Below are positions 49,439 through 57,501 of a stretch of 64,000 bases of DNA, in pieces. The stretch spans positions 448,001 to 512,000 of the forward strand of contig CAWFAD010000016.1 of assembly GCA_963813815.1 (NCBI GenBank), written 5' to 3'. A program made the position numbers and the translations under genes. Below the pieces are notes generated by a model. The model saw nothing but the letters and a program-made list of their open reading frames with translations. It was not told the origin of the DNA and did no database searches. Each line of letters opens with the position of its first letter. Positions within the stretch are counted from its first letter, which is position 1. The DNA comes from an uncultured bacterium (GTDB lineage: Bacteria; Krumholzibacteriota; Krumholzibacteriia; Krumholzibacteriales; Krumholzibacteriaceae).

Positions 49439-50491
49439 TCAATCCTCACCTCCGAGGAACATGTTCGCGCGATGGGCCATCCATTCATGCGGCGGTAGGA
49501 ATCCACGCTCCTGAAACGCGTCGATGGCGTACAGGGCGACGAGCGGAGCCGCGACGAGCGGGGGCCACAGGGCGGCGAGAGCGGCGAGCGCCGCCGGTCC
49601 GAAGAAGAGGCGCTTCGCGTTCACGCGCCGCCGCGGGGGAACCTCGCCCCGCACGACGAGGCCGTTTCCGGCGTCGACCGTGACGGTATAGATGCGCTCC
49701 GCGTGGCGGTAGCGCAGGAGATACACGGGGTAGTAGTAGAGCGAGAGGCTGCTGTCGAAGAGCTGAAAGCGGCTCGCGCGCACCGTCGTCCCCGCTGCCG
49801 TCGCGAAGTGCGCGAGAAAGCTCAGGGCGTCGCGCCGCGCGGAGCGCTCGCTCCGCGTGGGGAGGGCGACCGTGTGCTCGCGGCGCCGCCCGGCGTCGAG
49901 CACGTCCCACTCGAGAAAATCGGTTCGGAACGAGATTCCCTGAAGCCCGAGGCTGGGGAGCACGCACGCCGGCGCGCTCCAGTCGATCCGTTTGAAGAGA
50001 AGCCGCGAGTAGGGAGTTCGTTCCTCGCGCATCGTCGTGCGCGTCTCGGTCGAGCGCGGATCGGCAGAGGCGATCTCGACCCGCACGAGCTTCGTGCGCT
50101 CGCCCGAGAGCCAGCCCATGACCCGGCCGCGAAGTCGCCAGAAAGGCACGTGCACGAGCCGCTGATCGACGATCGCGGTCTCGCGGGCGGAGATTCGGCC
50201 GCTCGATTCATCCGCGATCCACCGGATCGCCGCGAGCCGGGCCTTGCCCGGCGTGGTCGACGGTTTGAGAATGAAGCTCCGTAGACCGCGCGGCGCGGCG
50301 ATGAGGAGCGCCGACGAGCAGTAGCCGCAGCGGATGCTCCGTTCCCCTTCGTTGATGCGGAGCGCTCCGCCGCATGAGGGGCAGGTCGCCCCGAAGGCGA
50401 GCCCGCGATCGGCCGCTCTTCGGCCCCGCGAGGGGATCTCGCGCTCCGCTGACGCGCGTTCATCCATGGCGCTCGAATGCACGGCCGTCAT
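49439..50491 (-). CDS. Zinc-ribbon protein with C-terminal TMs (YdjG-like)
   Basis: CPSCGG..CGYC, HVPFW, YYPVY, VDAGNG; ATGA overlap with upstream stop. Confidence 0.7.
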   Translation of the reverse strand: MTAVHSSAMDERASAEREIPSRGRRAADRGLAFGATCPSCGGALRINEGERSIRCGYCSSALLIAAPRGLRSFILKPSTTPGKARLAAIRWIADESSGRISARETAIVDQRLVHVPFWRLRGRVMGWLSGERTKLVRVEIASADPRSTETRTTMREERTPYSRLLFKRIDWSAPACVLPSLGLQGISFRTDFLEWDVLDAGRRREHTVALPTRSERSARRDALSFLAHFATAAGTTVRASRFQLFDSSLSLYYYPVYLLRYRHAERIYTVTVDAGNGLVVRGEVPPRRRVNAKRLFFGPAALAALAALWPPLVAAPLVALYAIDAFQERGFLPPHEWMAHRANMFLGGED

Positions 50492-51180
50492 CCCTTCGCC
50501 CGCTCCCGGAGCGTAAAGACGAGATACCCGGCCGACGCGGCCGCGGCCACAGCGGCGAGTCGGCCGAAAAAACCAGGCGTGACCTTCGCGAGCGTGAAAT
50601 ACACGGCGAAGAGAGCGGCGATCGAAAGTCCCAGTCCGAGGCTCGGCCTGCGCCTGCGCTCGGGGGGCAGATCCTCCGCGACGACCTGCCAGCTCTCGCC
50701 GACGACCGCCGCCCGGCCCCGCCAGCCGCCGGCCTCGTACTCGAGGGAATACACGGGAAGGTAAACGATCCGCGGCGCTCTCGGATCGACGCTGTCGGCG
50801 TCGACCACCGGTTCCGGCTGCTCGCTCTCGCTCAGGAACCCGTAGCTCCCGGCGGGAGGGTACGGCGCCTGATCGGCCGCCGTCCACGCGCCGGCCGCCG
50901 GAACGAGGGAGATCCCGCCGTCGTCATCCTCCGCCATGGAAAAGGGAATGAACGAGAAATCCGTCGCCAGGCGCGTCGCGCGCCGGCGCTCTTTCCGGGC
51001 GAGGTGCGATCGCAGCGATGCCTCGGCCGCCGCGTCGTCGCGCGCGTGCGAAAGGATGAGACGCTCGACTTCCCTGGGTTTGTCGAGGGCGAGGGATGCT
51101 CCGCAGAAGGAGCAAATGAGCATCGTTTGCCCCGGCTCGAACCGGTTCTCCCCGCCGCAGAGGCTGCATTGAACGAACAT
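50488..51180 (-). CDS. Zinc-ribbon protein with two C-terminal TMs
   Basis: CSLCGG..CSFCG, FIPF, YLPVY. Confidence 0.7.
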   Translation of the reverse strand: MFVQCSLCGGENRFEPGQTMLICSFCGASLALDKPREVERLILSHARDDAAAEASLRSHLARKERRRATRLATDFSFIPFSMAEDDDGGISLVPAAGAWTAADQAPYPPAGSYGFLSESEQPEPVVDADSVDPRAPRIVYLPVYSLEYEAGGWRGRAAVVGESWQVVAEDLPPERRRRPSLGLGLSIAALFAVYFTLAKVTPGFFGRLAAVAAAASAGYLVFTLRERAKG

Positions 51181-51222
51181 GGGAACCCGCCTGTGTTCCG
51201 CCGCCGCCGCGGCGCCCGCGCG

Positions 51223-52281
51223 CTACGCCTTGCCGCCTTCGAGGTTCTTGCCGCAGCCCATGCAGAACTTCGCGCCCGCCGGAACCTCGGTCTTGCAGCC
51301 GGGGCATTGGATCGAGCGCGCGACCGGCGCGCCGCAGGAGGCGCAGAAGCGCGCATCGGCCGCTATCTCCGCGCGGCATTTCGGGCAGAGGACCGCGTCT
51401 TTGACGGCGGACGCTCCGCCCTTCATTCCTTGGGCGATCATGCCTGGGATCATGAACCCGAGGCCGGCGCCCAGGCCGATTCCCATCCCGCCGGCCGCAG
51501 CGCCGCCCGCGCCGCCGTCTCCGCCGGAAGTCGCGGCGTCGCCCATGGCCTTCGCCGCCTTGAACTTGAAGAAGCTGTCGAGATCGCCCACCGCGGCGAG
51601 GCCGCTCCGCTCGTCGATCATCTTCTGCACTTCGGGGGGCGGGGTGATGGCGCTGAGGTAGAAGTCGGCGAGCTCCATGCCGTATTTGCGAAAGTCGCCG
51701 ACGAGGCGCTCCTTGATCTCGACCGCGAGCTCGTCGTACTGGCGCGGCAGATCGAAGATGGTGTCGAGCTTCTCGCCGAAGAGGTCGTTGATCCGGGCGA
51801 CGATCACGTCACGGAGATAGTCGCCGATCATCCCGCTCGTGTAGAAGCCCTGCGTGCCGACGACCGCGTTGATGAAGAGCGCGGGCTCGGCGATCTTGAA
51901 GGTGTAGACGCCGAAGGCTCGGAGCCGCACGAGGCCGAGCTTCGAGTCGGTGAAGGCCACCGGATCCTTCGTGCCCCATTTCTGGTTGATGAAGCTCTTC
52001 ATGTTGACGAAGAAGACCTCGGCGCGGAACGGGCTCTTGAATCCCCATGGGAGCGAGATGATCTTCGTGAGGATCGGCAGGTTCTTCGAGGTGAGGGTAT
52101 GTCGTCCGGGTCCGAAGATGTCGAGCCCCTTGCCGTCCTTGAAAAAGACCGCCATCTGGTTGTCCCGGACGATGAGCTGCGCGCCGATCTTGATCTCGGC
52201 GGACCCTTCCGGTGGAATGCGGTGAACGATCTCGTCGCCTCCGAGATCGAACCATTCCAGGATTTCCATGAACTGAGACAT
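51223..52281 (-). CDS. SPFH (band 7) protein with C-terminal double zinc ribbons (YdjI-like)
   Basis: [48 protein letters not shown]. Confidence 0.9.
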
Positions 52282-52356
52282 ACCGGCCTCCCCTTCGCAT
52301 AGATAGAGTTTGTTCGTTGCGGGCGTCGTGCCCGGCCGCCCGATTGAGGACGAATG

Positions 52357-52372
52357 AGCAAAGGTAATGCCA
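52357..52372 (-). promoter_or_regulatory. sigma54 promoter of the SPFH operon
   Basis: Minus strand TGGCAT-TACCT-TTGCT, 75 nt upstream of ATG 52281. Confidence 0.65.
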
Positions 52373-52534
52373 AATCGGCGGTTAGCGCCATTTTGGAGGT
52401 CCGGCTGGCGCCGGCGGCCGGCCGGCCGCCGATATCCCATTTTCAAAAAAGGAGATATGACCTATACTGCAACCCGGGGTGGAGCGGTCCGGGGGAGGGT
52501 CGAGCGTGGAGTCCTGGCACGAAAGGAGTCGGTC

Positions 52535-52974: not shown

Positions 52975-54177
52975 ATGAAAGAACGCGGTGTTCCGATCGT
53001 GATGTATCACGGCGTCGGCCCCGATCGGGAGGGGTGGCCGTGGAACTACCTGTTCACGCCCTCTGACGTTTTCGAGCGCCAGATGCGGGCCCTCCGGGAT
53101 GAGGGATGGACGACGGTCACCCTCGCCGAGCTTCACGCGCACATGGCCTCGGGCGCGCCGCTTCCGCCGAAGCCGGTCGTGCTCACCTTCGACGACGGCT
53201 ACGCGGACAACTGGGTCTACGCGTACCCGCTGCTCAAGAAATACGGTCATCGGGCGGCGATCTGGATGAGCACCGATTTCGTCGATCCGCGCGGCGTGCC
53301 GCGTCCCACGATCGAGGACGTCTGGGCAGGGCGCCTTCGCGAAGCGGAGATCGATCCGCGCGGCTATCTCTCGTGGGCCGAGATGCGCCGCATGGCGGAG
53401 AGCGGCCACGTCGAGATACAGAGCCACGCGATGACGCACACGTGGTATCCGGTCGCGGAGGATATCGTCGACTTCCACCGTCCGGCGGGGGTGGACGATT
53501 ACGAGCCGCCGCTCTGGCTCGGCTGGAACATGTTCCCGGGACGGAAGCACGAGAGCATGCACCTGAAGCTCTCCGATCTCGTGCCGCTCGGCACGCCGGT
53601 CTACCGGCACGAGAAATCCCTCGCGGCGCGCCGCTATTTCGAGGACGAACGTCTGACGGAGAGGCTTCGCGCCCACGTCGCCTCCTCGGGCGACACGGCG
53701 TTTTTCGAGGAGCCCGGGTGGCGCGAGGAGCTCATGGAGATCGTGCGCGAGCACGGAGTGGGCGGCGGCCGGCTCGAGACGGAGAGGGAGTACGCCTTCC
53801 GCGTTCGCCGGGAGCTCGTCGAGTCGCGCAGGATGATCGAGGAGGCGCTCGGCGCGAAGGTGGAGTTCTTTTGCTGGCCGGGAGGCGGCCGGAGACCCGA
53901 AACGCTCCGCATGGCCGAGGAGGCGGGGTATCTCGCGACGACCACGCACTTCGAGGACCGCTCGCGGCGGAACGTCCGGGGACAGAACCCGCGCGAGCTC
54001 TCCCGCATCGGTTCGGGATCGCCGTGGACGTGGCGGGGAATCGCCATCAAACGCACCGGCCCCGGCTTCTTCATCGCCAACCTCGAGACCTTCGCCGGCG
54101 GCGAAAAATCGATTTGGCGCCTTCGCGCCCATAAACTACAATATCTCCTCCGGCACTTCGTTTCGGGCGCGCGCTGA
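52975..54177 (+). CDS. CE4 (IcaB-like) polysaccharide deacetylase with large insertion
   Basis: IVMYH, LTFDDGY, LSW, QSHAMTH, FCWPGG. Confidence 0.88.
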   Translation: MKERGVPIVMYHGVGPDREGWPWNYLFTPSDVFERQMRALRDEGWTTVTLAELHAHMASGAPLPPKPVVLTFDDGYADNWVYAYPLLKKYGHRAAIWMSTDFVDPRGVPRPTIEDVWAGRLREAEIDPRGYLSWAEMRRMAESGHVEIQSHAMTHTWYPVAEDIVDFHRPAGVDDYEPPLWLGWNMFPGRKHESMHLKLSDLVPLGTPVYRHEKSLAARRYFEDERLTERLRAHVASSGDTAFFEEPGWREELMEIVREHGVGGGRLETEREYAFRVRRELVESRRMIEEALGAKVEFFCWPGGGRRPETLRMAEEAGYLATTTHFEDRSRRNVRGQNPRELSRIGSGSPWTWRGIAIKRTGPGFFIANLETFAGGEKSIWRLRAHKLQYLLRHFVSGAR

Positions 54178-54195: not shown

Positions 54196-55917
54196 ATGTT
54201 TCCGCCGCTGCCACCGGCGCTCATACGGAACGTCATTTATCCGGTCTACCGGGGGCTCCGGCGCGACCGGCTGCTCTCCGTCCTCGAGGAGCTCGAGCGG
54301 AACCAGTGGCTCTCCGCGCGGGAGATCGAGGACCTCCAGTGGAGCCGGCTCGCCGCGCTCATCCGCGGGATTGCCGCGTACGTGCCGTTCTACGAGGACC
54401 TGCTGAAACAGATCTCGCTCGCGCCCGAGGACCTGCAGAGCCCCGAGGATTTCCGGAGGATCCCGTTCCTCACGAAGGAGATCATCCGGAGCGCCGGGGC
54501 CCGGATGACGTCGAAGGATCCGATTCGGCGCGGCTTCCCGTCGAGCACGGGAGGGTCGACGGGGGAACCGCTCTTCTTTTACGGCGACGTTTCGACGGGC
54601 CCGCTCCGCAGGGCGAACGGGATGCGCGGGTTCCGATGGGCGGGGATCGACATCGGCGACCGGCAGGCGGTGCTCTGGGGCACCCACCTCGGCTCGGGGC
54701 GGCGCGAGCGGGCCGCGCAGGCGGCGCGGAACTATTTCAGCAACACGCTCTACCTGTCGACCTTCGACATGTCCGACGCGTCGATGGAGCGGTACGCGGC
54801 GAGGCTTCGCGCCTTCCGGCCGCAGCTCTTCACCGGATACCCCTCGGCGCTCGCGCTCTTCGCCGCCTTTCTCCGCTCCCGGCGGGCACAGGATATCCGG
54901 CCGCGCGCGGTCATCGCGAGCGGCGAGGAGCTCTACGAAAGCCAGCGCGAGCTCATCGAGGCCGTGTTCGGCTGCCGGGTCTTCGACCGGTACGGGAGCC
55001 GCGAGTTCGCCGGGGTGGCGCACGAATGCGAGGAGCACCGCGGACTCCACGTCATGAGCGATCTCTTTTACGTCGAGGTCGTCACCGAGAGCGGCCGCCC
55101 GGCGAGCGAGGGCGAGATCGGCGAGATCGTCGTCACGGACCTCTTCAACACGTACATGCCCTTCGTCCGCTACCGGACCGGCGACCTCGCCGTGACGACG
55201 GGGCGGACGTGCCCGTGCGGACGCGGGCTGCCGCTCCTCGAGCGGATCGAGGGACGGAGCTTCGACGCCATCGTCACGGCCGACGGCAGGCATATCGGCG
55301 GCTTTTTCTGGACGTGGCTCTCGCGCGCGGTGCCGGGCATCCGGCGCTTCCAGGTCGAGCAGCGCGAGCGGAGCGGCGTCATCTTCCGCTTCGTGCCGGG
55401 CCCCGAGTGGCGCGACGAATACGAGCGCTCGCTCGAGAAGAAAATCAGGGAGAACTGCGGCGACGGGTTCGGCGTTTCCTTCGAGCGCGTCGGAGAGATT
55501 CCCCTCACGCCGTCGGGCAAGTCGAAGTTCATCATTTCGAACGTCGGCGAGCGGCTCGTCGTGAAGTCGAAGATCCATCGCGCGACGATCACGGCCGAGG
55601 AGCCCGACGGACCCGACTGCATCGTGATCGACGAGGAGATCATGGAGCTCGCCAACATCTCCCGGAACGAGAAGGTGCTCATCGTCGATATGACGAACGG
55701 CGAACGCGTCGACGCCTTCGCCGTGCCGGGCGCGCGGGGCGGGGGAGCGGTGACGGTCTGCGGCGCCGCGGCGAAGCTCGTTCACACGGGGGACACCGTC
55801 GGCATCATGGCGTTCACCTGGTCCGAAGGCCCGACGGGGCGGTTCGCCAACATTCTCGTCGACGAGCGGAACCGGTTCGCCCGGTACCTCACCGAGAACG
55901 CCGGAGATACGGTCTAG
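54196..55917 (+). CDS. PaaK/CapK-like adenylate-forming ligase fused to a C-terminal PanD-like domain
   Basis: STGGSTGEP, RYGSREF, RYRTGD, EGR, TPSGK; then KSKIHRATIT..IDEEIMELANI..NGER..GAAAKLVHTGD. Confidence 0.9.
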   Translation: MFPPLPPALIRNVIYPVYRGLRRDRLLSVLEELERNQWLSAREIEDLQWSRLAALIRGIAAYVPFYEDLLKQISLAPEDLQSPEDFRRIPFLTKEIIRSAGARMTSKDPIRRGFPSSTGGSTGEPLFFYGDVSTGPLRRANGMRGFRWAGIDIGDRQAVLWGTHLGSGRRERAAQAARNYFSNTLYLSTFDMSDASMERYAARLRAFRPQLFTGYPSALALFAAFLRSRRAQDIRPRAVIASGEELYESQRELIEAVFGCRVFDRYGSREFAGVAHECEEHRGLHVMSDLFYVEVVTESGRPASEGEIGEIVVTDLFNTYMPFVRYRTGDLAVTTGRTCPCGRGLPLLERIEGRSFDAIVTADGRHIGGFFWTWLSRAVPGIRRFQVEQRERSGVIFRFVPGPEWRDEYERSLEKKIRENCGDGFGVSFERVGEIPLTPSGKSKFIISNVGERLVVKSKIHRATITAEEPDGPDCIVIDEEIMELANISRNEKVLIVDMTNGERVDAFAVPGARGGGAVTVCGAAAKLVHTGDTVGIMAFTWSEGPTGRFANILVDERNRFARYLTENAGDTV

Positions 55918-55979
55918 GGTACTTTCCGGCGGCGCCCGTTTGTACTATATTTCCCCCCGGCGCCGGGGCGTGGAGCGTT

Positions 55980-56339
55980 ATGAAACGGTTGCTGCTCAAA
56001 TCGATGATCCTCAAGGCCACGGTGACGCAGGCCGACGTGCATTACGTCGGCAGCATCACGATCGACCAGGATCTCATCGAGAAGGCGAATCTCTGCGAGC
56101 ACGAGAACGTTCTCGTCGCCGACCGTTCGAACGGCCGCCGTCTCGAGACGTACGTCATCGTCGGGGAGCGGGGGAGCGGCGTCATCGCGATGAACGGCGC
56201 GGCCGCGCATCTCATCAACGAGGGGGACGTCGTCGACATCATGGCGTTCAGCTGGTCGAACGGGGAAGTGCATCCCCTCTTCATCGAGGTGGACCGGGCG
56301 AACCGTTTCGCGGGTTATCACGACGGGGACGTTTCGTGA
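55980..56339 (+). CDS. panD: Aspartate 1-decarboxylase-like proenzyme (variant lacking K9/H11)
   Basis: YVGSITID cleavage site, NGRRLETY, NGAAAHL; GGAG RBS. Confidence 0.88.
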   Translation: MKRLLLKSMILKATVTQADVHYVGSITIDQDLIEKANLCEHENVLVADRSNGRRLETYVIVGERGSGVIAMNGAAAHLINEGDVVDIMAFSWSNGEVHPLFIEVDRANRFAGYHDGDVS

Positions 56340-56379: not shown

Positions 56380-57501
56380 ATGTTCTCCATGAACCTGCGG
56401 TTGTTTCGCCTCATGTCGATCCCGGTCGAGATCAACCTGAGCTGGCTCTTCGTGCTCGCGCTCATGACGTGGACCTTCGCGACCGGCTTCTACGCGGACG
56501 CGCTTCCCGACGGCAGCAGGCTCGAGCTCTGGGGGCTCGGTTTCATCACGGCGATTCTGGTGTTTGTCTCGATCCTGCTCCACGAGTTCAGCCATTCGAT
56601 CGTCGCCTCCCGCAACGGTCTTCCGATACGCAAGATCACGCTCTTTCTCTTCGGCGGCGTCGCCCAGATGGAGCGCGACGTCGATAACCCGACGGTCGAG
56701 CTCAAGATGGCGGCGGCCGGCCCGGCGATGTCGGTCGTGCTGGCGGCTCTGTTCTTCGCGCTCTCGAGGATCTTCTCGCAACACCGTCTCGTGTACGTCC
56801 TCATGAACAATCTCGCCTACGTCAATCTCCTCGTGCTCGGATTCAACATGGTGCCGGGTTTTCCGCTCGACGGCGGCAGGATACTCCGCGCCGCGATCTG
56901 GCGCGCGACGGGAAACGTGCAGAAGGCGACGCGCATCGCGAGCCGGATCGGCGGCGCGTTCGCGATCGTGCTCATCGTCTACGGCGTGATCAATCTCTTC
57001 GGCGGCGTCATTATCGGCGGACTCTGGCTCATCTTCATCGGTTTTTTCCTGCGCCAGGCGGCGCAATCGGGATATCTGCTCGTGACCTTCAAGCAAACGC
57101 TCGGGCACCTGCGGGTCTCCGACGTCATGCGCTCGCCGGTCGTGACGGTGGACGCCTCGGAGAGTCTGCGTCGCCTCGTCGACGACTACGTTCTCCGGTA
57201 CCACTACGCGTCGTTTCCGGTGATCGAGGGAGGACGGCTCGCGGGCATGGTCTCGCTCAAGGACGTCAAGCGGGTCGACATGTCGGCGTGGGGCGAGGCG
57301 AGCGCGGGGGAGATCGCGGATCGCGGGATCGTGCCGTACGCGCTCAGCCCGGAGCAGCCGGCCGAGGCGCTCGTCGGCCTCATGATGAAAAAAGGATACG
57401 GCCGGCTGCCGGTCGTGGACGGCGAGGGCAGGGTGGTCGGGATCGTATCGAGGCGCGACCTGATGGAAACGATCAAGATGATGGCGTATCTCGAGGAGTA
57501 G
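56380..57501 (+). CDS. Site-2 protease (M50) with tandem CBS domains
   Basis: HEFSH, AGP, FNMVPGFPLDGG, CBS pair. Confidence 0.92.
   Translation: MFSMNLRLFRLMSIPVEINLSWLFVLALMTWTFATGFYADALPDGSRLELWGLGFITAILVFVSILLHEFSHSIVASRNGLPIRKITLFLFGGVAQMERDVDNPTVELKMAAAGPAMSVVLAALFFALSRIFSQHRLVYVLMNNLAYVNLLVLGFNMVPGFPLDGGRILRAAIWRATGNVQKATRIASRIGGAFAIVLIVYGVINLFGGVIIGGLWLIFIGFFLRQAAQSGYLLVTFKQTLGHLRVSDVMRSPVVTVDASESLRRLVDDYVLRYHYASFPVIEGGRLAGMVSLKDVKRVDMSAWGEASAGEIADRGIVPYALSPEQPAEALVGLMMKKGYGRLPVVDGEGRVVGIVSRRDLMETIKMMAYLEE

Follow-up and report, generated by a model that had tools for sequence, protein, structure and literature searches.

Textbooks present PanD as a homotetramer; the enzyme is used in industry and is the drug target of pyrazinoic acid. 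In its canonical form, as in Escherichia coli, Mycobacterium tuberculosis, Helicobacter pylori and Thermus thermophilus, a single gene provides four equal sites at the subunit interfaces, with K9 and R54 of each site coming from the neighbouring subunit (PMC6969166, PMC3314653; these and all other papers are cited from parts of their text). Here we describe two neighbouring genes of an uncultured Krumholzibacteriaceae bacterium (GenBank assembly GCA_963813815.1, contig CAWFAD010000016.1, positions 448,001 to 512,000). We refer to this stretch of 64,000 nucleotides, at its full length, as the window. One gene encodes a stand-alone PanD (SA), and the other encodes a ligase-PanD fusion protein (FU). 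In contrast to canonical PanD, the two halves of the active site are divided between two proteins, of which one is joined to a 450-amino-acid ligase, and no more than two of the four interfaces could be active.

Other systems resemble this pair in part. In E. coli and its relatives a second protein, PanZ (PanM), binds and controls the PanD ring and binds coenzyme A (CoA) species (PMC4410942, PMC3473359). The ligase part of FU likewise belongs to a CoA-ligase family, and CoA sensing by it is pure conjecture. However, PanZ has a GNAT fold, sits outside an intact PanD homotetramer and gives no active-site residues, whereas FU is a PanD paralogue that would lie inside the ring. The AdoMetDC-prozyme of Trypanosoma brucei is a pyruvoyl decarboxylase that requires a catalytically dead paralogue for activity (PMC5201418). 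That prozyme acts allosterically by relieving autoinhibition and supplies no residues; it is eukaryotic, has another fold and is not fused to an enzyme. The closest analogue in logic is the trypanosomatid deoxyhypusine synthase DHSc-DHSp, where an impaired and a dead paralogue assemble 2:2 into a heterotetramer with about 3000-fold higher activity, in an enzyme family whose sites are at monomer interfaces (PMC3663545). DHSc-DHSp was demonstrated experimentally, whereas for SA and FU such an assembly is predicted; it also differs in its unrelated fold, its NAD-dependent chemistry, its origin in a eukaryotic parasite and its lack of a second-enzyme fusion. Finally, PaaK-family ligases (PaaK1/2, BT_0428, HCL, NatL2, AjiA1) share the fold and motifs of FU residues 1-450, but the solved relatives have no PanD-like domain. 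We found no description of a split-site PanD, a ligase-PanD fusion or such a paralogue pair in the openly accessible literature.

The two genes lie in the same direction, 62 bases apart, and have the following coordinates in the window:

54196..55917, plus strand: FU gene, 573 amino acids, PaaK-like ligase carrying a PanD-like domain at its C-terminus
54196..55545, plus strand: PaaK-like (ANL superfamily) adenylate-forming ligase part of FU, residues 1-450
55546..55917 including the stop (codons 55546..55914), plus strand: PanD-like domain of FU, residues 451-573, PF02261
55980..56339, plus strand: SA gene, 119 amino acids, PF02261 and TIGR00223

Both SA and the FU domain are members of Pfam PF02261, scoring 126.2 and 84.7 bits, respectively, against a cut-off of 25. 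The TIGR00223 equivalog has a cut-off of 106; SA lies above it at 115.9 bits, and the FU domain does not reach it at 76.5 bits. A phmmer search of the PDB gave gapless alignments of both to 2c45, the PanD of M. tuberculosis (2c45 residues 1-93 for SA, E 1.4e-29; residues 3-98 for the FU domain), and to E. coli PanD entries. A preliminary description of this locus had placed both copies on PanD numbering without gaps, and these alignments agree with it. Therefore, a PanD position equals the SA residue number, or the FU residue number minus 450. An open frame of 677 amino acids (54306..56339, plus strand) also crosses the FU gene in another frame and finishes as SA. This frame is a high-G+C artefact, and the SA homologues begin at the ATG at 55980 (MKRLLLKS).

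SA shares its fold, family and gapless numbering with canonical PanDs and carries the same G24-S25 (56049-56054), T57, Y58 and N72, as well as Y22 and R54. At three other positions it has M9 (56004-56006), L11 and D86 (56235-56237). We examined these positions in 121 stand-alone homologues from a large protein database. Y22, G24, S25, R54, T57, Y58, N72 and D86 were each kept in 121/121. Position 9 was M in 117, V in three and I in one, and position 11 was L in 89, M in 23, I in three, V in three, F in two and Q in one; K9 and H11 were each absent from all 121. Copies of SA cut from related genomes behaved in the same way, with M9, L or M at position 11, and D86 in 28/28, and with Y22, G24, S25, R54, T57, Y58 and N72 retained in 28/28. 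In PanD, T57 and N72 are linked to the activation of Ser25 within the same chain (PMC3975893), and Y58 acts as proton donor (PMC3975893, PMC3314653). All 121 SA homologues have the self-cleavage/pyruvoyl site G24-S25 with its supporting T57 and N72, and all 121 have the proton donor Y58.

The PanD-like domain of FU has the opposite set. It carries K9 (55570-55572), H11 (55576-55578), R12 and R54, together with G22, D24-C25 (55615-55620), A57, F58, C72 and G86. Here the comparison used 110 full-length homologues, after 10 of the 120 listed matches had been dropped as fragments outside 540-660 amino acids. K9, H11 and R54 were present in 110/110. Position 24 was D in 107 and E in three, and position 25 was C in 83, G in 20 and S in seven. 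F occupied position 58 in 100/110, and Y was never found there. Position 72 was C in 42, S in 38, G in 14 and T in 13, and never N. Among FU copies of related genomes, K9 and H11 occurred in 22/22 of those with the first strand inside the fetched locus, D24 occurred in all 23 rows, and again Y was never seen at position 58 nor N at position 72. Judged by D24-C25, the FU domain cannot form a pyruvoyl group, yet it still has those residues that a PanD subunit contributes to its neighbour's site.

Two substitutions in the window's FU copy are, from these comparisons, traits of its close kin and not of the FU family. Position 57 is T in 100/110 homologues, and position 86 is I in 56, S in 28, G in 25 and T in one. 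The earlier suggestion that I86G reshapes the substrate pocket therefore finds no support at the family level. Half of the family (56/110 FU copies) has I86, which would make the composite site of these members canonical throughout.

Taken side by side, the alignments indicate that SA and FU have lost opposite halves of the site, and that this is a trait conserved across both families. The same reciprocity is seen in 28/28 SA and 22/22 FU relatives and in the 121 and 110 database homologues, so the pattern is not due to chance. Every substitution listed in the preliminary description was confirmed by direct reading of the sequence, and the complementary pattern it expected at homologous loci was found. 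R54 is kept in both families (121/121 and 110/110), and position 86 is split, with D in SA and I, S, G or T in FU. In sister families, the single PanDs are canonical and retain K9, H11 and I86 (L003, L004 and 19 further rows).

The significance of these losses depends on which subunit supplies which residue. K9, H11, Y22, G24, S25, R54, T57, Y58, G73-A75, I86 and N112 are strictly conserved in aspartate decarboxylases, and Lys9* and Arg54* belong to a different subunit from Pyr25, Thr57 and Tyr58; Lys9* forms an ion pair with the alpha-carboxylate of the substrate (PMC3314653). A second report locates the site at the junction of two neighbouring subunits and uses the same Arg54* notation (PMC6969166). 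These sources confirm the earlier assignment of K9 and R54 to the neighbouring subunit. For H11 and I86, which had been assigned in the same way, the backing is indirect. The adjacent-subunit side of the pocket is formed by strands 2-14, 82-94, 41-48 and 52-59 (PMC11808261), of which 2-14 and 82-94 take in H11 and residue 86, and FU residues 461 and 535-536 lie at the interface of the complex model described below. The strictly conserved K9 and H11 are present in all 110 FU homologues and in none of the 121 SA homologues. By these two residues, as read from the alignments, neither SA nor FU alone is a full PanD; only the pair is. The sequences, their reciprocal conservation, the phyletic pattern and the placement of K9 and R54 in the literature are established.

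We think it likely, on balance, that SA and FU together make up a single heteromeric L-aspartate alpha-decarboxylase of the pyruvoyl-dependent kind, an A2B2 ring with two composite and two dead sites. PanD is a ring of four, in which each site combines one subunit's cis face (pyruvoyl-25, T57, Y58, N72 and Y22) with its neighbour's trans face (K9, H11, R54 and residue 86); every subunit has one neighbour at its cis face and the other at its trans face. SA retains the cis half only and FU the trans half only. A ring of SA alone would miss K9 and H11 at all sites, and a ring of FU alone would miss the pyruvoyl group, Y58 and N72 at all sites. In an alternating SA-FU-SA-FU ring, the two interfaces that join an SA cis face to an FU trans face would be complete, essentially canonical aspartate sites, which would supply beta-alanine to the panB/panC pathway. 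The other two interfaces, with FU cis and SA trans faces, would be dead and probably converted to a hetero-specific contact, in which the uncleaved FU loop with D24 would lie against M9, L11, R54 and D86 of SA. We infer the hetero-oligomer, its stoichiometry, its substrate and this dead-site "lock" alike. FU would join the ring as a dimer or pair of ligases, and decarboxylation would thereby be physically tied to a PaaK-like adenylating enzyme.

The sequence prerequisite of a hetero-oligomer completed by a pseudoenzyme, reciprocal conserved loss, is present in SA and FU. If the proposed ring is real, a homomeric ring with shared sites has become an obligate heteromer through complementary losses, a ratchet by reciprocal degeneration. 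To date, experimental evidence for this route comes mainly from polyamine enzymes of trypanosomatids. In bacteria, the pair would be the first instance in this enzyme class of pseudoenzyme paralogues that complete an active site between them. The automatic labels "aspartate 1-decarboxylase" and "phenylacetate-CoA ligase" would also be misleading for a whole order of Krumholzibacteria. Beta-alanine supply would be coupled to ATP-dependent ligation, and this might lead to a new control point or a new product derived from beta-alanine.

The complex model contained two copies of SA and two of the PanD-like domain of FU, with a separate alignment for each, and was run three times; this 2+2 arrangement was the only one modelled. 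The ipSAE scores were 0.89, 0.88 and 0.89, and the best of three controls scored 0.00. The ipSAE mark is reached by 116/157 solved complexes and 2/215 mismatched pairs, counts that are only roughly valid here because the job used its own alignments and chain copies, unlike the calibration. The runs shared at least 94% of contacts, and the predicted local distance difference test (pLDDT) of the partners was at least 90. Each SA copy contacts both FU copies in the model, which gives an alternating ring. On the cis face, SA 41-43, 56, 58 and 77 are predicted to contact FU positions 4-6, 45, 52 and 90. On the trans face, SA 4-6, 45, 47-48, 52, 88 and 90 are predicted to contact FU positions 24, 42-43, 56, 58, 74 and 77, with SA residue 47 touching D24 of FU. 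The interface residues include H11 (461), 51-58 with R54, and 85-86 (535-536) of FU, and 9, 11, 19-25, 51-56, 58, 72-75 and 85-86 of SA. The core idea of the preliminary description, that a complete site exists only in a mixed oligomer, has come through every computational check run, and that interpretation is partly supported.

We investigated the distribution of SA and FU in the phylum. The two are the only PF02261 matches in the window's own genome (G000; 2.53 Mb, 90.8% complete), and the source names of their homologues are Candidatus Krumholzibacteria or Krumholzibacteriota. In a scan of 181 genomes of the phylum, each at least 80% complete, the pair was confined to families f1-f3 of one order. 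Of the genomes of this order, 43/44 have a PF02261 match, and 39 of these 43 have both kinds. Three genomes with a single match are accounted for by contig ends (G002, G030) or by unknown bases in the fused domain (G004), which leaves G063 as the sole exception to co-occurrence. A third, canonical PanD was not found in the pair-bearing genomes by the PF02261 search; extra matches in G027 and G029 scored 17 bits, below the cut-off, and lie in frames of 657 amino acids. One genome (G068) carries two fusion genes (L133 998-2716 and L134 1104-3248), of which one adjoins a stand-alone panD and the other is on a different contig with no stand-alone partner nearby. Outside the order, families f6, f7 and f9 have one canonical PanD (140-172 bits), and the 93 genomes of families f4, f5 and f8 gave no PF02261 match.

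Adjacent panB and panC genes are present in 40/40 relatives, including every other pair-bearing genome among them. This indicates that the lineage makes pantothenate and needs beta-alanine, and it has no other PanD. The ligase as a non-orthologous replacement of PanC was rejected on this ground. All five genomes searched from families f4, f5 and f8 (G034, G035, G038, G039 and G040) likewise have panB and panC, so these families must get beta-alanine by another route.

Several observations weigh against the mixed ring. R54 is invariant in SA although it would be located in a presumed dead site, which could instead mean that substrate binds at SA-SA sites, and by our own reasoning a hydrophobic pocket with an Asp (M9, L11 and D86) is in principle a workable decarboxylase design. 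FU K9 (residue 459) is absent from the contact residues listed by the model. The high score of the complex may merely echo likeness to the PanD homotetramers already solved, and a ring model that resembles those tetramers is no evidence of assembly; the score also does not rank the mixed ring against rings of SA or FU alone. G063 (94% complete) has an SA gene with M9, L11 and D86 (G063:C31, L132 2754-3092, minus strand), and a search beside this gene and of the whole assembly, the latter with the full FU protein as query, found no FU. The adjacency described earlier holds in most genomes, with 25 of the 29 that have both genes in a 41-genome sample carrying them on one contig and strand within 1.3 kb. 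It fails in others, as the genes are 15 kb apart in G009 and on different contigs in G006, G017 and G014. As for the pathway, searches of the window's genome found neither panB nor panC, which is probably an assembly gap and not a real loss. The PanD-less families with panB and panC imply another source of beta-alanine in the phylum, and the pair therefore need not serve pantothenate.

Part of this evidence would suit a different arrangement, in which SA is an autonomous homotetramer with a re-designed pocket (M9, L11 and D86). The FU domain would then be a non-catalytic module of the ligase, for oligomerisation or for carboxylate binding through K9, H11 and R54, and would not mix with SA. The SA score above the curated panD equivalog cut-off (115.9 versus 106), its full set of cis residues for self-cleavage and Schiff-base chemistry (T57 and N72 roles: PMC3975893), its invariant R54, the genome that has SA without a detectable fusion and the few genomes with unlinked genes are all consistent with this. 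However, an autonomous SA leaves the exact reciprocity unexplained, as FU keeps K9, H11 and R54 in 110/110 homologues and has lost the cis residues, and SA lacks K9 and H11 in 121/121. It would also lack K9, strictly conserved in this enzyme and paired with the substrate's alpha-carboxylate (PMC3314653), and D86 beside R54 would be expected to compete with the substrate carboxylate. In the 2+2 model SA and FU alternate around a single ring, although the model may only mirror solved tetramers. We regard an autonomous SA as unlikely.

By sequence, the ligase part of FU matches phenylacetate-CoA ligase structures (4r1l, E 2.2e-32; also PaaK1/2, 2y27 and 2y4o). The AlphaFold model of FU has a mean pLDDT of 86, with about 91 in the PanD-like domain and less than 50 in the linker (residues 451-453), and Foldseek matched its fold to 4r1l and 2y4o (E about 1e-28, TM score by target 0.66). 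No NCBIfam match above cut-off to a named equivalog (PaaK, F390 synthetase, the DVU_1553 family and others) was obtained for the ligase part. The best was the DVU_1553 family AMP-dependent CoA ligase NF045666, at 162.3 bits versus a cut-off of 300, and PF00501 also fell below its cut-off (24 versus 29.9). Across the 110 homologues, a P-loop [SN]TGGSTGEP (117-125), YG[ST]xE (266-270) and a hinge GRxFD (353-357) are kept, and G441-K442 is conserved, with K in 105/110. We take these motifs, the C-terminal Lys included, to be the catalytic motifs of the ANL superfamily. FU therefore has an ANL fold with the P-loop, the hinge Gly-Arg-x-x-Asp and the C-terminal Lys, and its conserved motifs suggest that the ligase is probably active.

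The PanD-like domain begins about 10 residues after K442, which places K9 and H11 right behind the mobile C-terminal subdomain. Two guesses can be made about what the ligase does for the ring. It might use nascent beta-alanine, either as the acid to be adenylated or as an amine acceptor. Alternatively, domain movement driven by ATP and CoA might gate the site, a guess that arises because K9 and H11 lie about 9-11 residues past that subdomain. In its strongest form, the proposal would be an obligate A2B2 enzyme whose half-site donor is hard-wired to the ligase C-terminal subdomain, so that the ATP/CoA cycle gates beta-alanine synthesis, as a built-in PanZ-like CoA feedback, or captures nascent beta-alanine. 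We consider this extended version doubtful.

Among the matches listed, the nearest unfused ligases are 32-35% identical and come from Planctomycetaceae (L033 7953-9407) and Verrucomicrobia (L034 7956-9407). Both lie inside polysaccharide clusters with Wzy_C, group-1 glycosyltransferase (GT1), PGA_cap, heparinase II/III-like, sulfatase and methyltransferase genes. A contig scan for fusions outside the known set gave, among the matches listed, one further Krumholzibacteriia fusion (L035) and unfused ligases, the rest being ordinary PanDs. In a protein search for longer PanD proteins, 21/21 matches belonged to the Krumholzibacteria-type FU family. These data are weak evidence that the ligase-PanD fusion is restricted to this family.

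In the window, the following gene ends 19 bases before the FU start:

52975..54177, plus strand: polysaccharide deacetylase, PF01522 at 78.2 bits, start codon uncertain

Neighbouring genes in relatives' loci were located by tblastn of the window's proteins. The deacetylase lies directly upstream of FU in 3/9 fetched FU loci of relatives (L114, L118 and L119) and elsewhere in L113, and it was not seen in the fetched loci of families f2 and f3. The linkage is limited to part of family f1, and a conserved functional tie to the deacetylase was therefore rejected.

This context bears on another possible role, in which the pair and its ligase belong to a specialised pathway that has nothing to do with pantothenate. 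The decarboxylase, whether a mixed ring or not, would act on another amino acid, or its product, an amine or acid, would be fed to the ligase for polysaccharide decoration or for a small conjugate. The polysaccharide genes around the nearest unfused ligases, the deacetylase upstream of FU in the window and in three relatives, the conserved catalytic motifs of the ligase, and the PanD-less sister families that still carry panB and panC all fit such a role. However, the composite of SA cis and FU trans faces would have the full canonical set K9, H11, R54, T57, Y58 and N72, with I86 in 56/110, which argues for aspartate as the substrate. The deacetylase linkage is missing in families f2 and f3, the order has no other PanD to feed panC, and a genomic context taken from ligases that are only 32-35% identical may not transfer. 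We consider a role apart from pantothenate improbable.

A duplication within the order was considered as the origin of the two PanD copies. The tree, built from 69 PanD rows, sets SA apart from the other rows by one branch (SH-aLRT 97) and FU by another (SH-aLRT 99), and the branching order of SA, FU and canonical PanDs is not settled by this tree (support 50). Common to SA and FU are a MAF[ST]W[ST] motif at positions 88-93 and a loop that is 3-4 residues shorter, and both features are missing from 19/20 canonical rows. The shared motif and loop fit a duplication followed by reciprocal loss, and they give a hint, not proof, that SA and FU are sisters. The exceptional row comes from an uncultured bacterium (L110, CAJBME010000105.1, match 297-578) and has an "AFTWS" motif and the short loop on a long tree branch. 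Its residues are K9, H11, Y22, G24-S25, T57 and Y58, with R72, H83 and T86.

Downstream of SA, the window contains the following gene:

56380..57501, plus strand: M50 (site-2-protease-like) metalloprotease with two CBS domains, PF02163 and PF00571

This gene follows SA in 7/8 fetched loci that bear the pair, and also in G009, where FU is 15 kb away. Elsewhere in the window, a protein of the SPFH/Band-7 type with a double zinc ribbon, followed by two further zinc-ribbon-like open reading frames (50488..52446, minus strand; 49439..50887), forms a block that is syntenic with the pair across families f1-f3.

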